From positions 66,174 through 130,173 of the forward strand of contig CADCCZ010000006.1 of the NCBI GenBank assembly GCA_902800045.1: a stretch of 64,000 bases of DNA, written 5' to 3'. The DNA is from an uncultured Bacteroidia bacterium. GTDB taxonomy: Bacteria > Bacteroidota > Bacteroidia > Bacteroidales > ML635J-15. A program made the position numbers and the translations under genes. This document shows, one piece after another, positions 1,382 through 11,084 of the stretch (the first letter of the stretch is position 1; each line of letters starts with the position of its first letter). The notes beneath the pieces are model-generated. The model saw only the letters and a list, made by a program, of their open reading frames with translations, was not told the DNA's origin and did not search any database.

Positions 1382-4300
1382 ATGATTAGAAAATTGTCAA
1401 ATATGAAGAATTTTATTTCAACAGTAGCAATGATTCTTCTGCTTTGCACCGTAGCATTGGCAGAAAATCATCAGACTTCGTACAGCAAAGTTGCTAACGA
1501 ACATCAGATTACATTTACCTTGGGTGACTGGAATCTGGAAACATTAACATCAAACGGAACAACATTCCAGGTAATCGACGCAGGAATATCCGCAGTATCG
1601 AACAGAAAAGGCTGGGCAGAACTGCCAATGATGAGTGCAGCTATACAGCTTCCTGCCGACAAGAACGTAGGTCTCGAAGTAATTTCGTCGGACTACTACG
1701 AAATGAGGCTCGAATTCCCGGCATTGCCTTCGCGCGGAACTATCTACCGCAACCAGAATCCGTCAGAAATCCCATATTGGGTTGACCCGGCTTCGGCAGT
1801 AAACGAGTTCTATCCTAGCGAAAACGTAATCCTCGACGAACCGTTCATCTTCAGGAACGTAAGAGGTACTACCGTAAGGTTCTACCCGTTCCAGTACAAT
1901 GCTGCCACCCAGACATTAAGGGTTTACAACAGCATTACCATCGGACTTGCCGAAAACAACCAGCCGGCAATCAACCCGCTCACAAACAATACGGGCGTTG
2001 ACTCGCGCGAAGTTATTGGTATCTACAAGAGCCTGTTTCTCAACTACGAGCCGAGCAGAACCAGCGCAAACCTTACTGCAGGCGAATTCGGCGACATCCT
2101 GGTTCTCACACCGAGCACCTACGAATCGACAATGCAGCCTTACGTTCAGTGGAAACGCGAAATGGGCTACAATGTAACAGTTCAGACCGTAAGCAGCGGA
2201 GCAAACGTAGTATCTACAATATCGTCGGCATACTCGTCGAACCCCAACCTGCTTTATGTTCAGCTCGTTGGCGACTGGGCCGACATCAAATCGGCAACAC
2301 TCGGCAGCTCTACCTGCTCTTCGTGTCCTACCGACCCGAGAATGGGATGCGTTGCCGGTAACGACAACTACCCAGACCTTGCAATAGGACGTTTCTCTTG
2401 CTCCAACGCAAGCAACCTCGCAGTACAGATAAACAAGGCTATCGACTACGAAAAGAACCCCGACATGACTTCAGGCTGGCGCGAAACATTCATAGGCGTA
2501 GCTTCGGAAGAAGGTCCTGGCGACGACAGCGAATACGATTATACTCAAATCCAAAGGATTTACAACAACAAGTTGTCGCAGCTCGGAACCTACACTACGC
2601 ACAAGCAGCACTATGCTAACTCCGGTTCTGTTTCGGCATCGAGCGTTGCAACTAGCGTAAACGCAGGTGCATCTACAATCGCTTACTGCGGACACGGCGC
2701 AGAAACCTACTGGGTAACCAGCAACTATAGCACCACTAACATCAACAGCGCAACCAACGGCAGCAAGTTGCCGTTCATCGTATCGGTAGCCTGCGTAAAC
2801 GGTGCTTTCCACGAATCGGCAGACTGCTTCGCAGAAGGATGGCTTCGCAAGAGCGGCGGCGGTGCAGTTGTAACACTTATGTCAACCATCAACCAGCCAT
2901 GGCAGCCACCTATGAGAGGTCAGGATTACTTCTACGACATTCTTACTGGCGGTTTCAACTACGACAACGATGGCATTTCTGCAACTGCAGGTATCAATAC
3001 TACAGAACAGCGTACTCACTGGGGATCGATTGTTATCAACGCATTCACACTGATGCTTAAGGAATCGAGCACTACCGACGATATCGAAACCACAAAGACC
3101 TGGTCGACTTTCGGTGACGCTTCGTTGCAGCTCAGAACTAAGACTCCAGATGTTATCACCTCATCGAACAACGAAATGGTAATGGGCGTTCCATACACCA
3201 CTACAATAAAGATTGGTTCAACTCCCGTAGAAAACGCTCTTGTCTGCATATCGCAGAACGGAAGCTACTACAGAGGCTTTACAAATGCCAGCGGTCAGGT
3301 AACAATAACCAACAACTTCTCTGTTGGCGAAGCTTTGCTCGTTGTTACTGCATTCAACACAACAACCATCTACCAGACTATTCCGGTAAATTCGGCTAAC
3401 GAACCATACGTATCAATCCAGAGCTACTCGCCGCAGAACGTAAGCTTCGGAACAACCAGCGTTCTCTCGATGACTCTCGTCAACATGGGCGGTGTTGCAA
3501 CCAATGGTGCTACCAACGTTAGCCTCACAACTTCCGACCAGTACCTCACCCTCAACACTGCAAGTGCAACTTTCGGCACAATGGCAGCACAGGGCGGTAC
3601 AGCATCGAGCAGCGCATTCAACTTTACCGTTGCCGAAAATACTCCCGACGGACACGTTGCAACTATCAACGCAACAATAACCAACGGCTCGTACACATGG
3701 AACGGCACAATGAACATTACCATTGCCGGTCCTAACTGCGACGCACCAACAGGACTTAACGTTACTGCCAACGGCTCAAGCGCAACCATCACTTGGGATA
3801 CGCAGACTATCACACCAGTTACCATAAGCGACGATTTCGAAGGACATACCGCTTTCACAATCAACTCTCCGGGTACAGTCGGTTGGACTTACATCGATGG
3901 CGACGGAAGCACAACCGGCGCGATAAGCAACTACAACTCCTGGACTAACGCAAGGTCAGAAATGGCATATATAGTTTTCAATCCTTCGCAGGTAACTTCA
4001 CAGTATGGAAGCGGAAACCTATCGTCGTCGATAGCAGCACACTCGGGAAGCCAATTCCTTGCAAGCTTCTATGCTTCAACACCGCCAAACAACGACTGGA
4101 TTGTCAGCCCAGAACTTAACTTTGCAGAAAACTTCACTTTCTCATTCTACTATAGAGGCGGACACAAGACCACATACACCGAATCGTTTGAAGTTTACTA
4201 CTCTACTACAACAAACGAACAATCTGCATTCACAAATCAGCTCGGAACAGGAACAGCAACAGGCAGCACATCCGCAAGCGCATGGTCGCAAAAGACCTAC

Positions 4301-5536
4301 ACCGTACCTGCAGCTGCAAAATATGTTGCTATACGATGCACCTCAAACGACCAGTACTACTTCTGCATCGACGACATCACAATCAGCGGAACAGAAATTA
4401 GTGGCGCAGGTGCTGTAAATCTATACGACAACGGAGTTCTCGTTGCATCGAACATTACTACTGGCACTTATACGGCAAACAACCTTACTGCCGGACAGCA
4501 CTGCTTCAGCATCCGTGCCGTATGTGGCGACAACAGTGAATCGATGGCTGTACAGGAATGCGTAAACGTAACAAGTTCAGCTCCTAGCTACACCGTAACA
4601 GTTAATGCTGGCAACGGCGGTACAATAACTCCAAGCGGAACCCAGACCGTTTACCAAAACAACGACTTCACTTTTACCGTTACTCCAGACGACTGCTACG
4701 AAATAGCAAACGTTACCATAGACGGAAACAATGTAAACCTCAATGCTAACAACTCGTACACAATCAACAATATTACAGCAAACCATACTGTAAACGCTAC
4801 ATTCCACCTATTGTCGTACACAATAGCAGCAAGTGCAGGCGACAATGGTTCCATCAGCCCTGCTGGCAACACTAATGTCAATTGTGGCGACAATGCAACA
4901 TTTACCATTACTCCAGACGAAGGCTACGAAATTGCCGGCGTTACAGTCGACGGACAGAACATAGGTTCGCCAAGCACCTACACATTCTCGAATGTTGAGA
5001 CAAACCACACAATCAATGCAACATTCAGCATGATACCGGCCGAAACCTGCTACACAATTACAGGACTTGCAGTTGCTGTTGAGACTTACGGGAACGTCCT
5101 CAACTGGAATGCTGCCGAAAACGCAGTTTCGTACAACATCTACCGCAACAACGACAACACTGTTCTTGCAAACGTAAACTCGACCAGCTACATCGACATT
5201 AACGGAAACGTTGGCGACAGCTACCGCATAGTAACAGTATGCCAGCATGGTGAATCGGAATCGTCGGAAAGCGTTACTGCCACAACTTCCAGCATCGATG
5301 AAAACAGCATTTCGCTCAACATCTACCCGAACCCGACCGACGGCAAGTTCACAATCGAATGCAGCGAAATGATAACCATCGAAGTATTCGACATGGTTGG
5401 ACAACTAGTAGAAAAAATCGATGTCAATGCCAACTCTAGCAGCATCGATGCTTCGTCGTGGACAAATGGCGTTTATACCATCCGCATTGCAACATCCGAC
5501 ACCAACATCGTTGTAAAACAGCTTATCAAGCAATAA
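1382..5536 (+). CDS. Secreted multidomain peptidase C25 (gingipain-like) with T9SS C-terminal sorting domain
   Basis: A signal peptide is present (MKNFISTVAMILLLCTVALA). YCGHGAETYW and SVACVNGAF provide a His/Cys dyad about 33 aa apart, as in gingipains. Two ~70-aa repeats of the type YT(V/I)...G(G/S)I(T/S)P(S/A)G...ANHT(V/I)NATF occur. A DWIVSPELNF adhesin/MAM-like segment is present. The C-terminus LNIYPNPTDGKFTIE...VYTIRI is a T9SS CTD. Confidence 0.8.
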   Translation: MIRKLSNMKNFISTVAMILLLCTVALAENHQTSYSKVANEHQITFTLGDWNLETLTSNGTTFQVIDAGISAVSNRKGWAELPMMSAAIQLPADKNVGLEVISSDYYEMRLEFPALPSRGTIYRNQNPSEIPYWVDPASAVNEFYPSENVILDEPFIFRNVRGTTVRFYPFQYNAATQTLRVYNSITIGLAENNQPAINPLTNNTGVDSREVIGIYKSLFLNYEPSRTSANLTAGEFGDILVLTPSTYESTMQPYVQWKREMGYNVTVQTVSSGANVVSTISSAYSSNPNLLYVQLVGDWADIKSATLGSSTCSSCPTDPRMGCVAGNDNYPDLAIGRFSCSNASNLAVQINKAIDYEKNPDMTSGWRETFIGVASEEGPGDDSEYDYTQIQRIYNNKLSQLGTYTTHKQHYANSGSVSASSVATSVNAGASTIAYCGHGAETYWVTSNYSTTNINSATNGSKLPFIVSVACVNGAFHESADCFAEGWLRKSGGGAVVTLMSTINQPWQPPMRGQDYFYDILTGGFNYDNDGISATAGINTTEQRTHWGSIVINAFTLMLKESSTTDDIETTKTWSTFGDASLQLRTKTPDVITSSNNEMVMGVPYTTTIKIGSTPVENALVCISQNGSYYRGFTNASGQVTITNNFSVGEALLVVTAFNTTTIYQTIPVNSANEPYVSIQSYSPQNVSFGTTSVLSMTLVNMGGVATNGATNVSLTTSDQYLTLNTASATFGTMAAQGGTASSSAFNFTVAENTPDGHVATINATITNGSYTWNGTMNITIAGPNCDAPTGLNVTANGSSATITWDTQTITPVTISDDFEGHTAFTINSPGTVGWTYIDGDGSTTGAISNYNSWTNARSEMAYIVFNPSQVTSQYGSGNLSSSIAAHSGSQFLASFYASTPPNNDWIVSPELNFAENFTFSFYYRGGHKTTYTESFEVYYSTTTNEQSAFTNQLGTGTATGSTSASAWSQKTYTVPAAAKYVAIRCTSNDQYYFCIDDITISGTEISGAGAVNLYDNGVLVASNITTGTYTANNLTAGQHCFSIRAVCGDNSESMAVQECVNVTSSAPSYTVTVNAGNGGTITPSGTQTVYQNNDFTFTVTPDDCYEIANVTIDGNNVNLNANNSYTINNITANHTVNATFHLLSYTIAASAGDNGSISPAGNTNVNCGDNATFTITPDEGYEIAGVTVDGQNIGSPSTYTFSNVETNHTINATFSMIPAETCYTITGLAVAVETYGNVLNWNAAENAVSYNIYRNNDNTVLANVNSTSYIDINGNVGDSYRIVTVCQHGESESSESVTATTSSIDENSISLNIYPNPTDGKFTIECSEMITIEVFDMVGQLVEKIDVNANSSSIDASSWTNGVYTIRIATSDTNIVVKQLIKQ

Positions 5537-5588: not shown

Positions 5589-5603
5589 TTTCGCACTTCA
5601 GAA

Positions 5604-5725
5604 TTTGCAACGATACTAGCATTACAAATGCTCATACTCATCTCAGGCAGATTACAAATCCGCCTGAACAATATGTCCTTCGGGATTTGTAATCCCGAAG
5701 GCTCGAATATTAGGATTTGAAATCC
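5604..5725. repeat. Intact copy of a composite palindromic repeat (left half 5604-5673, right half 5675-5725)
   Basis: Contains GATTACAAATC / GATTTGTAATC and CCTTCGGG / CCCGAAGG inverted pairs. The left half recurs at 7006-7075 (54/55 identity over the core). The right half recurs at 10927-10977 (48/51). Confidence 0.85.
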
Positions 5726-5835
5726 GTAATAAAGCACTAATAGCATAATAGCTTAATTATCAATAATTTAACATTTTGATATAATTTTACATCATATAAA
5801 TTTATATGATATAGTTTTATATGATATAATTTTAT

Positions 5836-5859: not shown

Positions 5860-6993
5860 ATGAACATACCATTTGCATACGGGAAGATTGTGGAAAATAA
5901 CGATTTCACAGATAGGACAGAAGAAACATCTCTCTTGAGAAATAATTTTATGTCGCTTACCAATACGGCAATTATTTCACCTCGCCGTTGGGGAAAATCA
6001 TCTTTGGTTGCAAAAGCCATAAAGTCTGTCAAGGAGGAACAGGATGACATTTTGTTCGTGAAGATGAATATTTTCAAGACCGAAAATCCGCAAGAGTTTT
6101 ATGCAACTTTTGCCAAGCGAATAATGGAAGGCATCTCATCGTCGGCAGAGTCGTTGCTAACTAACGCCAAGGATTTTATTGCTCGCTTGCTTCCCAAACT
6201 GTCAATTTCTGACCCTATTGGACAGTATGAAATTGCACTTGGGGTGGACACAAAAAACTCTCCTATTGAAGAAGACATTCTGGATTTGCCGCAGCAGATT
6301 GCCCAGCGTAAGAAGAAAAAGGTTGTTGTATGCATCGACGAATTCCAACAAATAGGTGAATATTCCGATGCATTGAAATTCCAGAAGACACTACGCAGCC
6401 ATTGGCAGACACATTCTGATGTTGCCTATATACTATATGGAAGCAAAAAGCACATGATGATGAACATTTTCGGTGAATACAACAGTCCTTTCTACCGATT
6501 TGGCGATATGATGTTTTTGCAGAAAATATCCAACGATGAATGGCAGAAATATCTTGTCGGCAGATTTAAAGACACGGGAAAATCAATTACACAAGCACTT
6601 GCCAAGTACCTTGCCGAGCAAGTAGAAAATCATCCATACTATGTGCAGCAACTTGCCCAATATGCTTGGTTGAGAACAACGCGCACTTGCTCTACTGCCA
6701 TTGTTGACAATGCCTTGCAAGCAATGCTCGATTCGCTTAACTTACAGTTTGTCAACATAATGGACTCATTGACCGAGAAGCAACGGAATTTTCTTTGTGC
6801 AGTGTCCAACGATGTTAAAAATTTCTCGGCCTCGGATACCTTGCAACGCTACAAACTTGGCACCAGCGGTAACATCCGCATCATAAAGGAAGCCTTGAAG
6901 AAACGCGACCTGATTGATGAAACGGGCAAGGACATACAAATCCAAGACCCGATTTTTAAATTGTGGATTATTAGGGAATACGCTAAAATGTAA
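5860..6993 (+). CDS. Orphan AAA+ ATPase (archaeal-type ATPase / DUF234-like family)
   Basis: Walker A SPRRWGKSSLV and Walker B VVCIDEFQQI. A paralog of the same architecture lies at 27855-28979. Confidence 0.7.
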   Translation: MNIPFAYGKIVENNDFTDRTEETSLLRNNFMSLTNTAIISPRRWGKSSLVAKAIKSVKEEQDDILFVKMNIFKTENPQEFYATFAKRIMEGISSSAESLLTNAKDFIARLLPKLSISDPIGQYEIALGVDTKNSPIEEDILDLPQQIAQRKKKKVVVCIDEFQQIGEYSDALKFQKTLRSHWQTHSDVAYILYGSKKHMMMNIFGEYNSPFYRFGDMMFLQKISNDEWQKYLVGRFKDTGKSITQALAKYLAEQVENHPYYVQQLAQYAWLRTTRTCSTAIVDNALQAMLDSLNLQFVNIMDSLTEKQRNFLCAVSNDVKNFSASDTLQRYKLGTSGNIRIIKEALKKRDLIDETGKDIQIQDPIFKLWIIREYAKM

Positions 6994-7005
6994 TTCATAT
7001 CGGCA

Positions 7006-7075
7006 TTTACAACGATAAGAGCATTACAAATGCTCATACTCAACTCAGGCAGATTACAAATCCGCCTGAACAATA
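7006..7075. repeat. Left half only of the palindromic repeat
   Basis: gcattacaaatgctcatactcaactcaggcagattacaaatccgcctgaacaata matches 5619-5673 with one mismatch. The similarity ends abruptly at 7075. Confidence 0.85.
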
Positions 7076-7107
7076 GTCAATAACAATATTTGGGTTTTGC
7101 ATACAAT

Positions 7108-8013
7108 TCACAAAATCTTTTTGCTGTATTTCTTTACCAGATCTTTCGCATCCTGTAAGAGCCGTTTACGCAACCAGTTCGGACTTATAACCTCAACTTC
7201 CTTTCCCATAGCTCGCACTGTATTGATGAAATCATCGGTTGGGACCAAATGCAATTCAAATAGGTTGTTGGCAATCTCTTTCTGGGAACGGTGCAGAGGC
7301 AGCGAACGCAAATACTTTGCGCGTGTGTCTGAGGTCTTTAATTGTATATGTTCCGCTTTGCCATCCGTCACTATCATACCAAAATAGCGAGAAAAATAAT
7401 CGTCTGCAGAAAAATCTGTGGGCAGTTTGAACAATTTGTCGCTAATTTTCACATCCTTCATGCGGTCGAGTGCGTAAAGACGCAGAGAATCGTGGAAGCC
7501 GGTGTGAGCCAACACATACCAACGCCGACCAAAGTAGCGCAATGCGTAAGGTTCAATCTCAAACTCGCGTGCGGTTCGCATTTCGTAACTTTGGTATGTG
7601 ATTGACAGCCGACTGTTTTCGCGCATTGCAGTGGTGATTTCTGGAAGAAAAATGTTGCTGCCAGCCGGCGTATCTTCAAGAAGTATGCGGTCTGCCAAGT
7701 CCAGATTTTCGCTAACCATCTGGTTTACAGCAAATGCAGAAAGCAAGAACTGAGTGTTTTTATTGCATCCCGAGATGTCGTTTTCGATATGGTATTTTTT
7801 CTCTTTTCGGTCATATACGATTTGAATGTCGAACAAACTTAATATGTTATCTTTCATTCGGATGAATGTACGACGAGGAATTGTCCCCTTTCCATCATCA
7901 TTGAAGACGGAGTTTGCCCAGCGGCTGTCGATTTCACTTTTGGACAGGCCTTTGCTGTACGACAATAGTTCTATTAGCCAGAGGTAACGAGCGAAAAGAG
8001 TGGTAGGGGTCAT
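7108..8013 (-). CDS. WYL-domain transcriptional regulator (wHTH-WYL-C-terminal extension)
   Basis: N-terminal wHTH-like segment (LWLIELLSYSKGLSKSEI). WYL core YALRYFGRRWYVLAHTG...LRLYALDRM. The ATG lies 2 nt after the stop of the upstream nuclease gene. Confidence 0.75.
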   Translation of the reverse strand: MTPTTLFARYLWLIELLSYSKGLSKSEIDSRWANSVFNDDGKGTIPRRTFIRMKDNILSLFDIQIVYDRKEKKYHIENDISGCNKNTQFLLSAFAVNQMVSENLDLADRILLEDTPAGSNIFLPEITTAMRENSRLSITYQSYEMRTAREFEIEPYALRYFGRRWYVLAHTGFHDSLRLYALDRMKDVKISDKLFKLPTDFSADDYFSRYFGMIVTDGKAEHIQLKTSDTRAKYLRSLPLHRSQKEIANNLFELHLVPTDDFINTVRAMGKEVEVISPNWLRKRLLQDAKDLVKKYSKKIL

Positions 8014-8015
8014 TG

Positions 8016-9824
8016 TTATTTCCAGTAGCGAGTTTCGAGATAATTAAGCAGTTCTTTGTAGTCATCGTTTCCTTTCAAGGGGGAAAGAAGTTCTTGGGGA
8101 TCGATGATACGGAATTTGGATTTATCTTTCAAATTTGGAATAAAACAATTTTCCACTGCTTCACGCAATTCTGTATTCCCATTTGGAATCACATTGAGAT
8201 GGAAGAAATTTTTTGCATATCCTTTTTGTACCAATTGTTCCGCTAACAAAGTCTGGCGCATAAGTTCATAACTTGGTTCTTGGAAATAAATGGAATGAGC
8301 TACTCCGTCTTTAGGCGTTTTAAGCCTTGCTGAACTTATTATTTTTGCTCCATAACGATAAAGGCGCGTATCATTTGTTTTGTCTTCATTTTCGTAATTT
8401 TCCGTGTATTTCCATTCAATCGGAATCAGCCATTTTTCTTCACCTTTTCGTGCCACAATCATAGCATCAATTGATGTGCAAAGAACGCCTCTTCTTGCGC
8501 CCTTATCATTTTCACCCAACATTTCATCATTTTTATAAGCAAACTCAAAAGCAATGTAGCCACCATCGTTGTCAAGAGTCGATGGAAGCACTTCATCAAA
8601 ATCCATATTAGTTGCTTTGTTTATAACTGCCAATACTGCATCTTTATCTTCTCGCAAAGCAAAAAGATGATTTAGACAATGAATTTGTGAGGAAAGTAGA
8701 TGACCAGTAGGTTCAATTCCATTTTGCCCCCACCATGCGATTTTAAAATTTTTAAAATATTTTTTCGCTAAACTTCTGATTCCGGATTCCAAATTGAAAT
8801 CATTATAATTAGTATCTAAAATATAGTCTAATTTATAGACTTTAGATTTTTCATTGTTTCCTATTTTTAGAATTCCACCAAACTTTGCCGATTCAAATAT
8901 TGGATTTGATGTCAATTTGAATTGTTTTTCTGTTTCCAAACATTTAAATTCGTGAATTGGTTTATGAAAATATCTAACATATTTGTTACTTAAATAAATA
9001 TTCAGAATATCAGACTTCCGACCTTCTATTAGAGGATGCAAAGCGTCAGCTAGCATATACCCGTTTATGTATTTACATTTCTTCGTTTTATAAAAATCAT
9101 ATAATTTCCCAAAAGAACGATAAGAAGAAGATTCGGGAATTTTAATTTCCCCTTTCATCACATCGACCATTACATTAACATAGAACATCAATTCTGATAT
9201 TATTCCTACTTTTTTGTTTGTCTTTTGTTTCAATTCATAAATATTCAATGTGTTATATTTTATACTCCATATATCTAAAAAACTACTTGGTGTTACAGAT
9301 TTTCCTTTTGATATTTCTTCATTGAACAAATGAACGGGTAATTGTTGGTTTATCACATCACAAAAAGCCTTATTTTCAGCAAGAAAAGCCCTCTCAAGTT
9401 GAGCTTCTTTATGCGAAGCTTTTTTTTCTGCATCATCATTTGGCACATTAATTACCAAATGTAATTTGTCGAATTTTATTATGTCATCTTTGAAACCATC
9501 AGAACATGCCCAAATATACATTTCTTCAAATTTTTTTAGACGGTATAAAAATCTGTTATAGTGTTCTTTTTCGTTTTTAGATGGAGAGAAACTTTTCCCC
9601 GATACTATGACTTTTTCGATATACTCAGGCAACCATGCTTTCAAACAAATGGCCCAACCTTCAAAAGCTGCTGCGTCTGTTTGCATATTTGAGCAAATGC
9701 CATTCTCTGTCATCGTAATAACAAGTTCTTTTCTTTCTGGGTTTATATTAAAATCAATATCTTTAGGAAAATTTACGCGTCTGATTTTTGAACGTAATAG
9801 GTTTAAAATTTCTTGTTTGTTCAT
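8016..9824 (-). CDS. 602-aa protein with two PD-(D/E)xK nuclease-like modules (N-terminal NucS/DUF91-like; C-terminal restriction-endonuclease-like)
   Basis: Module 1: EAQLERAF ... FLDIWSI-x9-NIYELKQK (E, D, ExK). Module 2: HLLSSQIHCLNHLF ... TSIDAMIV-x12-LIPIEWKYTE (D, ExK). The gene is strongly AT-rich. No match to a named enzyme could be made by eye. Confidence 0.5.
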   Translation of the reverse strand: MNKQEILNLLRSKIRRVNFPKDIDFNINPERKELVITMTENGICSNMQTDAAAFEGWAICLKAWLPEYIEKVIVSGKSFSPSKNEKEHYNRFLYRLKKFEEMYIWACSDGFKDDIIKFDKLHLVINVPNDDAEKKASHKEAQLERAFLAENKAFCDVINQQLPVHLFNEEISKGKSVTPSSFLDIWSIKYNTLNIYELKQKTNKKVGIISELMFYVNVMVDVMKGEIKIPESSSYRSFGKLYDFYKTKKCKYINGYMLADALHPLIEGRKSDILNIYLSNKYVRYFHKPIHEFKCLETEKQFKLTSNPIFESAKFGGILKIGNNEKSKVYKLDYILDTNYNDFNLESGIRSLAKKYFKNFKIAWWGQNGIEPTGHLLSSQIHCLNHLFALREDKDAVLAVINKATNMDFDEVLPSTLDNDGGYIAFEFAYKNDEMLGENDKGARRGVLCTSIDAMIVARKGEEKWLIPIEWKYTENYENEDKTNDTRLYRYGAKIISSARLKTPKDGVAHSIYFQEPSYELMRQTLLAEQLVQKGYAKNFFHLNVIPNGNTELREAVENCFIPNLKDKSKFRIIDPQELLSPLKGNDDYKELLNYLETRYWK

Positions 9825-9854
9825 CTCTTTATATCTTTACGAATTAATACACTA

Positions 9855-9862
9855 CAAATATA
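9855..9862 (-). promoter_or_regulatory. -7 promoter box (TATATTTG on minus strand)
   Basis: Plus-strand caaatata lies 31 nt upstream of the 9824 ATG, suggesting the nuclease-WYL pair can be transcribed on its own. Confidence 0.35.
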
Positions 9863-9892
9863 CACACAATGTTGATATATACAATATAATTT

Positions 9893-10843
9893 TTACCTAT
9901 TTATAACCTCAATTGCCCTTTCTACATCCTTTTCCGTAATTCCTATAATTGGATCGATGCGGATGAAATGGTCTTGCAGTTCGGGTAACACTTCTTTCAA
10001 GTCATCGAAGATGACGAATCGGCGCGAATCGCTGTTGGCATCAAGCACTTCGTCGAAATACCACTTTATTTCGTTGCCTCGGCACAAACTTAGCATATCC
10101 ACTTGGGTCAAGTCGGTGTCGCGCAGTTTGTCGTCCAGCAGGTGCAAAGGCGTAATATCTACAATTCTACCAGGTAAATCGCGGTCGTACCACATCCTCT
10201 GCAAGACATTCAGCCCCATATAGCGCCACGACGAACTGACAACAATACGCGCACCAGTAACATCGATTATTTTCCGCAAATTCGACACAGCCTCGGGGTC
10301 GAACAACTGACCATATTTGTCATCGCTGGGCAGACCCTTGCTTTTCAATTCGCAATAATATTTCTCGGTGTTCAGAACGCCATCGAAATCGAGAAAAATA
10401 ATCGGACAATCCTTCTCATTATCTTGTGCTGCAATCTCTTGCTCTTTTTCAAAGCAGACATCAGCTGTCGTTCTGAATACTTTCTGTTCGTTGTGCTTGC
10501 CTGTTGTCTGCCAATCCAGTAGCAACGGGCGTTCCTTTTCGACAAGGTAATCCGAACACTCCAGCAAGGTGTCCTTGTCGGTGTCGAAAAAGATGTCTTC
10601 CGTAGCCTTTGGCAACCGTCTGAAAAGTTCGCGACTTCCAATGAAGAGTTCCTTGTTCTCCAGAAAATTATTCAAAGTTCCCATAATGGTGAACTTGTTT
10701 TCCTCAATGTGGTGTAATACGGCTTCCTTTATAAATTCATCAAGCACATCTTTAAGTCTGCTTTCGTCATAATTTGCGCCGCTAGCCTTCAAATATGCCT
10801 CCAGATGTGGCATTTCATAGTAAAGTTCAATCGTTCCTTTCAT
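9893..10843 (-). CDS. Two-domain protein: unknown N-terminal domain + HAD-superfamily phosphatase domain of the HAD_SAK type
   Basis: C-terminal half: IIFLDFDGVLNTEKYY (DxDGVL motif I), IVVSSSWR (motif II-like), RGNEIKWY, FVIFDDL (motif IV). Confidence 0.55.
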   Translation of the reverse strand: MKGTIELYYEMPHLEAYLKASGANYDESRLKDVLDEFIKEAVLHHIEENKFTIMGTLNNFLENKELFIGSRELFRRLPKATEDIFFDTDKDTLLECSDYLVEKERPLLLDWQTTGKHNEQKVFRTTADVCFEKEQEIAAQDNEKDCPIIFLDFDGVLNTEKYYCELKSKGLPSDDKYGQLFDPEAVSNLRKIIDVTGARIVVSSSWRYMGLNVLQRMWYDRDLPGRIVDITPLHLLDDKLRDTDLTQVDMLSLCRGNEIKWYFDEVLDANSDSRRFVIFDDLKEVLPELQDHFIRIDPIIGITEKDVERAIEVINR

Positions 10844-10874: not shown

Positions 10875-10926
10875 TGTGCCGAATGTGCCACTATGCGGCG
10901 CAGTGCAAAAAAAATTACATTTTCTC

Positions 10927-10977
10927 GTCCTTCGGGATTTGTACTCCCGAAGGCTCGAATATAAGGATTTGTAATCC
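10927..10977. repeat. Right half only of the palindromic repeat
   Basis: gtccttcgggatttgtactcccgaaggctcgaatataaggatttgtaatcc matches 5675-5725 at 48/51. Confidence 0.8.
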
Positions 10978-11084
10978 CCAAAAAACATCGTTGAAAAAAA
11001 ACACAAACAAATCTGAATTGCGTACCCAAAATATTTATAATTTTACGCAAAATTTTTTAACGCAAACACTAATATAGAAATACA

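Follow-up and report, generated by a model that had tools for sequence, protein, structure and literature searches.

How a bacterium might use a nuclease gene that has no methyltransferase beside it is the question raised by one gene of an uncultured Bacteroidia bacterium (Bacteroidales, ML635J-15). The gene encodes the protein P0001 and lies in a stretch of 64,000 nucleotides, referred to here as the window (assembly GCA_902800045.1, contig CADCCZ010000006.1, positions 66,174 to 130,173). A first-pass annotation, made from the sequence alone, had read it as an open reading frame (ORF) of 602 amino acids (aa) that fuses two different PD-(D/E)xK modules, and had proposed a nuclease that is either modification dependent or licensed by a regulator. 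The ORF with all the motifs quoted for it is present, on the minus strand and not the plus strand, and domain analysis confirms that the protein is built of two modules; the nuclease assignment stands for the C-terminal module, while for the N-terminal module a nuclease fold is plausible as a prediction. We consider it probable that P0001 belongs to a regulator-controlled nuclease cassette with a defence role of the anti-phage type: a small and apparently horizontally mobile set of three genes, inserted at a site where related strains carry other versions of the nuclease.

The two modules of P0001

Profile analysis confirms the C-terminal module as a PD-(D/E)xK family domain, in agreement with the earlier comparison to restriction-type nucleases. 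Residues 327-601 match PF22558 (REase-ARP) with E=1.1e-41 and 143.7 bits, and the module also matches PF20796 (PDDEXK_13) with E=3.4e-15 and 56.6 bits, the Pfam curated cut-off being 27 for each. Among 24 homologs the catalytic residues E427, D453 and E470-W-K472 never differ, and in a set of 42 they hardly vary; S378-S-Q380, R490-Y491 and E520/R523/Q524 are likewise invariant among homologs. Because of these matches and unvarying residues, we read the C-terminal half as a PD-(D/E)xK nuclease whose E/D/ExK site is intact. Stand-alone REase-ARP proteins (~315-335 aa) begin at a helix that matches P0001 residues ~293-304. Nuclease activity is presumed for both modules, as is their substrate.

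The N-terminal module (A) represents a large family: exhaustive HMMER searches collected 829 clusters at E<=1e-3 (586 at E<=1e-10), mostly stand-alone proteins of 290-330 aa, none of which has a Pfam domain or a name. Across 129 diverse members D184, E197, Y215 and H263 are invariant, and at least 90% keep N46, M47, Q48, F54, E55, W57, Y89, R91, F92, R95 and W105, as well as N126, E140, E144, Q161, P163, K199, N203, G207 and E211. The N-terminal E/D/ExK pattern pointed out in the first-pass annotation is real in this sense, as E140/E144...D184...E197-L-K199. No cysteine occurs among the invariant or at least 90% conserved columns, and the four-cysteine Fe-S cluster of Cas4 has no counterpart in them. 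The first 125 residues form a separate conserved subdomain with strongly conserved polar and aromatic residues (including Q48, E55, W57, R91, R95 and W105).

Several similarities point to the kind of enzyme that this module may be. Given the AlphaFold2 (AF2) topology (helix 139-154; strands 157-160, 185-189 and 192-198; helix 207-223; strand 252-258), E140/E144, D184, E197/K199 and E211/Y215 are predicted to sit at the four motif places of a RecB/Cas4-type PD-(D/E)xK enzyme. When the 129 members were scanned against Pfam one by one, Cas_Cas4 (PF01930) was matched by seven (best E=0.005) and NucS_C (PF01939) by two (best E=0.044), all below threshold; these were the sole families matched by more than one member (RE_ApaLI was matched once), and P0001 itself had no PF01930 match. 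An hhalign comparison with a 25-sequence Cas4 alignment yielded one weak alignment of 53 columns (P=0.046), which puts D184, E197xK199 and E211xxxY215 in register with the D, ExK and QxxxY of Cas4. Motif and model together make a Cas4/RecB/NucS-like nuclease core likely.

The narrower proposal of a NucS/DUF91-type nuclease is not sustained. The N-module of P0001 has no Pfam match even at E<=10, its profiles find no match among PDB sequences, and a separate AF2 model of residues 1-300 (pLDDT 88.9, pTM 0.89) has no significant Foldseek neighbour in the PDB or BFVD and no NucS structure among its matches; we therefore do not count it as a NucS/DUF91 member. The structure search that had been suggested for residues 1-300 thus gave nothing significant, and the sub-threshold Cas4 and NucS_C matches come from few relatives.

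For P0001 as a whole, the AF2 model (mean pLDDT 83.6, with 24 homologs as input) has no Foldseek match in the PDB at E<1e-3, the best being Can1/Card1/Can2 with TM scores <0.13. HMMER searches of PDB sequences with P0001, its C-terminal half and profiles of 18, 7 and 129 sequences returned nothing relevant, and NCBIfam and PADLOC no useful match. Homologs number 526 at E<=1e-3, almost all of them from rumen or gut Bacteroidales; P0001 was not found in phages (PHROGs and phage tblastn), and a plasmid search gave a single weak and uninformative match.

Features of the cassette and its insertion site (window coordinates)
Feature	Position	Strand	Remarks
Two-module nuclease gene (P0001)	8016..9824	-	ORF with 602-aa translation
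N-module A, residues 1-290	8955..9824	-	N-subdomain 1-125 and putative PD-(D/E)xK core ~135-290
C-module, residues 327-601	8022..8846	-	PF22558 and PF20796; probable effector
316-aa HAD protein	9893..10843	-	N-domain 1-147 and HAD_SAK_2 phosphatase 148-307; PF18143 E=2.1e-24
301-aa HTH-WYL-WCX transcription regulator	7108..8013	-	PF13280 E=4.5e-17, PF25583 E=8.3e-7
Palindrome-like element G(C/T)GCCAC-N3-5-TGGCAC	10885..10901	-	Candidate operator, ~45 nt upstream of HAD start
Intact 136-bp repeat (D1 + D2)	5598..5733		Two hairpin-forming units
Left half (D1) of split repeat	7000..7075		92% identical to 5598-5673
Right half (D2) of split repeat	10927..10985		90% identical to 5675-5733
377-aa AAA_14/ATPase_2-type ATPase	5860..6993	+	Separate insertion
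1384-aa C25 (gingipain-family) peptidase	1382..5536	+	Type IX secretion system (T9SS) sorting domain; borders the hot spot

The cassette, its insertion site and its relatives

P0001 is the middle gene of three. On the minus strand the cassette consists of the HAD_SAK_2 gene, a 68-nt gap, the nuclease gene, a gap of 2 nt from the nuclease stop to the start of the next gene, and the WYL/WCX gene; its flanks are housekeeping genes. To place this arrangement we examined the REase-ARP architecture and neighbours of 80 related loci, to which the counts of loci below refer. Similarity to the HAD protein, whose motif I (DFDGV) is intact, is present in 31 of them, and in 12 further loci a 185-aa calcineurin-like phosphoesterase (Metallophos) follows the nuclease in place of HAD. 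An N-terminal stretch of ~95 residues of this HAD protein (10559-10843) also recurs upstream of the nuclease without the HAD domain (L002, L005, L007, L012, L013 and L045), in the first four of these loci as separate ORFs of 103-141 aa.

The third gene encodes an HTH-WYL-WCX regulator that is co-operonic with the effector, in a frame that congeners keep, and WYL genes are present in 31 of the loci. Its nearest solved relatives are DriD, PafBC/PafC and CapW, and PADLOC recognizes it by generic WYL models only. The columns of the palindrome-like element upstream of the HAD gene are invariant in seven cassettes carrying different nucleases, and the WYL protein presumably binds there. The earlier suggestion of a regulator-licensed nuclease fits the tight spacing of the two genes, the recurrence of WYL and the conservation of the upstream element.

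Between 386 and 16915 the ten main ORFs, chosen as the longest that do not overlap, include no methyltransferase by Pfam, nor any ARG, rhodanese-phosphatase, Macro or NADAR gene; the N6_Mtase genes of the genome lie on other contigs, the genome-wide search not having covered C5 and N4 methyltransferases. A classical type II restriction-modification (R-M) pair is absent, as had been anticipated. The accompanying claim, that the nuclease has no methyltransferase partner, stands for the cassette and these ten ORFs, but it does not extend to all relatives: in 12 loci (L027, L028, L051-L055, L058, L067, L070, L072 and L073) the nuclease and an N-terminal partner of type A or B, the latter described below, lie between hsdM and hsdS of type I R-M operons. 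One of these embedded loci (L028, Prolixibacter bellariivorans) shares with the window the fused architecture of A-module and C-module (A+C). In the two that were Pfam-scanned, L053 and L027, an AAA_21/SMC_N or AAA_15 ATPase gene follows hsdS, and in L027 hsdR comes after the ATPase.

Outside R-M operons, relatives are found near other genes. In Xylanibacter ruminicola KHT3 (L041) a fused A+C nuclease of 644 aa lies between SIR2 (232 aa) and NUDIX (145 aa) genes, and because this is an NAD/ADP-ribose-flavoured context in a cultured strain, the locus is a possible experimental handle; the full order at 6125-10382 is DUF6994, a 116-aa ORF, SIR2, nuclease and NUDIX. Vsr, Fic-HTH and YhcG nuclease genes are further neighbours. 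In five loci (L014, L016-L018 and L024) a Vsr-type gene (167-170 aa) comes after the series WYL, B-module, REase-ARP and Metallophos; in L014 a Fic+HTH gene lies between Metallophos and the Vsr-type gene. The genes checked at these Vsr loci included no C5 methyltransferase. Surroundings of this kind (SIR2, NUDIX, Vsr, Fic, YhcG and R-M genes) are usual for defence genes.

The N-module is an independent, swappable family, which relatives fuse, split off or replace. Besides the fusion of A-module and REase-ARP seen in P0001 and among the related loci, the A-module occurs as a separate gene upstream of REase-ARP (L008, L030, L032-34, L043 and L072/73), and in 36 loci an unrelated module (B), with the motif RFDhhAh...hhE(L/V)K, is fused to REase-ARP or precedes it; about 23 of 79 loci have no neighbouring partner gene of type A or B. 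A and B were tried as one family and are treated as separate, because hhalign aligned the D..ExK hairpin alone (18 columns, 1% probability). The HAD protein is fused straight to the REase-ARP module in P0103 and in L035. Tandem REase-ARP paralogs (292 and 446 aa) lie downstream of the WYL gene at 6613-8930 of L036.

The A-module has a second life outside these loci. In six of seven sampled cases the gene directly after a stand-alone A-module gene encodes a hydrolase with a metallo-beta-lactamase (MBL) fold, with the RMMBL (beta-CASP) motif in both partners that were Pfam-scanned; the neighbourhood often includes a calcineurin-like phosphoesterase and a WYL/WCX gene as well. The nuclease slot swaps between REase-ARP and a beta-CASP MBL enzyme, and the phosphoesterase slot among HAD, calcineurin-like and Nudix proteins.

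The borders of the cassette mark an insertion. The 136-bp repeat is intact once in the window, and a second copy is split: the cassette, 3851 bp long, sits exactly between the two halves. The repeat seems to act as a recurrent site of insertion or recombination. The nuclease gene has a G+C content of 0.30-0.34, compared with 0.48-0.50 for the genes on either side (gcvP, mutS2 and the peptidase gene).

The same site takes several states in same-genus genomes whose gcvP is 92-98% identical. In one (G158) it is empty, with the peptidase gene, one intact repeat and gcvP, and no AAA ATPase gene; in two (G161 and G153) it holds the AAA ATPase gene only. Two others (G176 and G090) have HAD and WYL genes around a PDDEXK_13/REase-ARP protein of 321 or 293 aa that lacks the N-module (E=4e-62 and 1e-59). 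In G175 the HAD gene (92% nucleotide identity) and the WYL gene enclose a 610-aa protein of B-module and REase-ARP, and G152 carries the A and C parts as a split version, with 47% aa identity, on the contig that also holds gcvP. The window and G175 resemble each other from the WYL gene as far as 8695 in the nuclease gene (~residue 376) and again from the HAD stop onwards, from which we conclude that recombination exchanged the N-module. The fused gene is found in one of 25 same-genus genomes, a patchy and strain-specific distribution.

The AAA ATPase gene, which lies between the intact repeat and the split left half, was considered as a part of the cassette and rejected: it is present without the cassette in G161 and G153 and missing from almost every related locus. 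L013 has a homolog of 23% identity behind its WYL gene, and in L084/L085 the A-module is preceded by an AAA_14+DUF4143 gene.

A probable defence role and its alternatives

What, then, might the cassette do? In the defence role that we regard as the probable one, the C-terminal module would be a metal-dependent PD-(D/E)xK endonuclease that makes the killing cut; since it is the sole part always present in the HAD-X-WYL frame, we take it to be the core effector. The N-module would be an accessory, most likely a second, Cas4/RecB-like active site (D184/E197/K199) together with the N-subdomain, and may add a second cut or resection, or provide target sensing. The WYL/WCX protein, of the DriD/PafBC/CapW type, probably binds the upstream palindrome, its presumed operator, and would set expression on a nucleic-acid or nucleotide cue, its presumed ligand, made during infection or damage. 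The HAD phosphatase would either trim phosphorylated nucleic-acid ends or process a nucleotide or ADP-ribose-type signal, two roles that the data do not separate, and the N-terminal domain of this protein, not the phosphatase, may be what interacts with the nuclease. Self-protection would need no linked methyltransferase.

Several groups of observations support this explanation: the family and invariant E/D/ExK residues of the C-module, and the invariant residues, topology and Cas4 register of the N-module; the operon layout with its conserved upstream element, and the published control of diverse defence systems by WYL regulators; the conserved linkage of nuclease, phosphoesterase and WYL genes, along with the HAD/REase-ARP fusions, which are of the Rosetta-stone kind; the fused, split and exchanged forms of the N-module; the AT-rich gene, the insertion into a split repeat, the patchy distribution and the swapping of effectors at one site; and the occurrence of relatives in type I R-M operons or beside SIR2/NUDIX, Fic, Vsr and YhcG genes. 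Other points weigh against it. WYL factors of the DriD/PafBC type also run DNA-damage responses, which leaves room for a role in repair, and a simple model of cutting and killing gives the phosphatase no evident task. REase-ARP owes its name to ARG and rhodanese-phosphatase partners, neither of which occurs here; the nuclease fold of the N-module lacks statistical support in profile and fold searches, no system model of PADLOC-DB v2 (2023) matches the nuclease or the HAD protein, and the literature yielded no experimental study of any component.

A wider reading, which we put forward tentatively and would not yet call probable, takes the A-module family (~830 clusters) as the hallmark of an undescribed modular defence system, widespread in Bacteroidota, with four slots. 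The first would hold an A (or B) module acting as a new kind of sensor-nuclease whose core resembles Cas4; the second an exchangeable effector nuclease (PDDEXK_13/REase-ARP or a beta-CASP MBL enzyme); the third a swappable phosphoesterase (HAD_SAK_2, calcineurin-like or Nudix), which might make cleaved ends unrepairable or reset a nucleotide signal; and the fourth the WYL regulator. Variants without WYL and phosphoesterase genes would have been plugged into type I R-M operons.

Among the alternatives to defence, the one that survives best, though we think it unlikely, is a damage-inducible module for nucleic-acid end processing or repair, in which a WYL protein that senses single-stranded DNA (ssDNA) switches on a nuclease (PD-(D/E)xK or beta-CASP) and a 3'-phosphatase (HAD or calcineurin type) that clean damaged DNA or RNA ends. 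HAD and Metallophos fill one slot of the cassette, and T4 Pnkp and Clostridium Pnkp employ this same pair of phosphatase folds. HAD_SAK_2 takes its name from RNA-repair proteins, the MBL partners bear the RMMBL motif, and the closest solved relatives of the WYL protein, DriD and PafBC, are both activated by ssDNA (PMC9186387, PMC10853764). A housekeeping repair module would, however, be expected to be kept more uniformly within the genus than this strain-specific cassette; and the hot spot with its swapping effectors, the AT-rich, foreign-looking composition and the settings of relatives (type I R-M operons, or SIR2, Fic and Vsr genes as neighbours) all speak against repair.

It is less probable still that the cassette is an ARG-less offshoot of the ADP-ribose-centred conflict systems, with a phosphoesterase (HAD, Metallophos or Nudix) that processes a signal derived from ADP-ribose or another nucleotide, a WYL protein that senses it and REase-ARP as a second-line effector, an idea that partly overlaps with the defence role favoured above. 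It would suit the company in which REase-ARP was defined, namely WYL/Nudix regulators and HAD/calcineurin phosphatases in the relevant section of PMC9503650, and the Xylanibacter ruminicola homolog between SIR2 and NUDIX genes. Yet the cassette and its flanks have none of the ARG, Macro, NADAR and rhodanese-phosphatase genes, SIR2 and NUDIX occur together at one sampled locus only, and the HAD domain is of the polynucleotide-repair type and not of the 5'-nucleotidase family.

To the type IV-like, modification-dependent enzyme of the first-pass annotation we give similarly little credence. Here a modified base on phage DNA would be recognized by the N-module, or by the first 125 residues alone, and the nuclease would cut modified DNA only, which would explain why no methyltransferase is needed. 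The missing methyltransferase, the conserved N-subdomain with no assigned function and the exchange of N-modules between close relatives, as is often seen with specificity domains, are in its favour, but P0001 has no modified-base reader or type IV family match in Pfam, NCBIfam or PADLOC and no significant fold match, the cassette includes no NTPase partner such as an McrB-type one (the AAA ATPase close by is a separate insertion), the HAD-X-WYL frame works with a nuclease that lacks the N-module, the A-module pairs with beta-CASP MBL enzymes too, and conserved phosphatase and WYL partners are foreign to type IV enzymes.

If the cassette does work in defence, it would be a compact nuclease system of three genes under the control of a regulator, from a group (the gut and rumen Bacteroidales) whose phage defences have been little studied, and it would give a first function to an unannotated protein family of ~830 clusters. 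The hot spot is in addition a natural experiment on the extra module and the phosphatase, with constant HAD and WYL genes around a nuclease that has no N-module or one of type A or type B. With three folds alternating in a fixed phosphoesterase slot and two in a fixed nuclease slot, these loci make a clear case of modular evolution in conflict systems.

Comparison with known systems

The closest precedent for the C-module comes from the ARG-centred systems, whose predicted role is to counteract ADP-ribosylation by viruses (Iyer, Burroughs, Anantharaman and Aravind 2022, PMC9503650). Section 3.8 of that paper describes predicted conflict systems in which a rapidly evolving REase is combined with regulators of the WYL/Nudix kind and with phosphatases of the HAD, calcineurin-like or HD type, and the Pfam name REase-ARP probably refers to this "rapidly evolving REase". 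REase-ARP, PDDEXK_13, PF22558, PF20796 and HAD_SAK_2 are not named in any of the literature found. The cassette shares with these systems the profile and catalytic residues of the C-module and the linked WYL regulator and HAD phosphatase. It differs in having no ARG, rhodanese-phosphatase, chaperone, Macro or NADAR gene and in the extra fused module of ~290 aa, which section 3.8 does not describe; REase-ARP is moreover found here in type I R-M operons and paired with Metallophos.

WYL regulators control diverse defence systems (PMC9122589; PMC13622015). As in the BrxR (BREX) and CapW (CBASS) operons, an HTH-WYL-WCX gene lies in the operon of the effector with a palindrome-like element upstream, and DriD, PafBC and CapW are the nearest solved structures to the regulator of the cassette. 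In contrast to those operons, a HAD phosphatase with a tandem nuclease is not a described controlled set, and the sequence similarity of the regulator to BrxR/CapW is low (CapW E=0.001).

The N-module resembles Cas4, RecB and NucS in its D...ExK followed by (E/Q)xxxY on the next helix, in the register with Cas4 given by the weak alignment above; it departs from them in having no above-threshold profile match, conserved Fe-S cysteines, NucS N-domain or Foldseek match, and in its additional conserved subdomain of 125 residues.

Accessory genes embedded in type I R-M operons include those of the anticodon nucleases PrrC and RloC and the "rlo" genes. The 12 loci in which the nuclease and its A or B partner lie between hsdM and hsdS recall this arrangement. 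The copy in the window lies outside any R-M operon and has a PD-(D/E)xK fold, unlike the ABC-ATPase nucleases, and silencing of the embedded nuclease by the R-M complex has no support here.

Can1 is the top Foldseek match of the whole model, without being significant (E=0.02, TM 0.09). P0001 has no CARF domain, coiled coil or McrBC partner; what it shares with Can1 and with the tandem-nuclease effectors of CoCoNuT systems (PMC11090510) is the presence of two nuclease-type modules per polypeptide in a conflict locus.

Set beside these systems, the family of the C-terminal domain and the WYL theme were already known from computational work. New are the A-module family, its size and its ability to pair with either of two unrelated nuclease folds; a set of three phosphoesterases that replace one another; a hot spot at which effectors have been swapped naturally; and the variants embedded in type I R-M operons.

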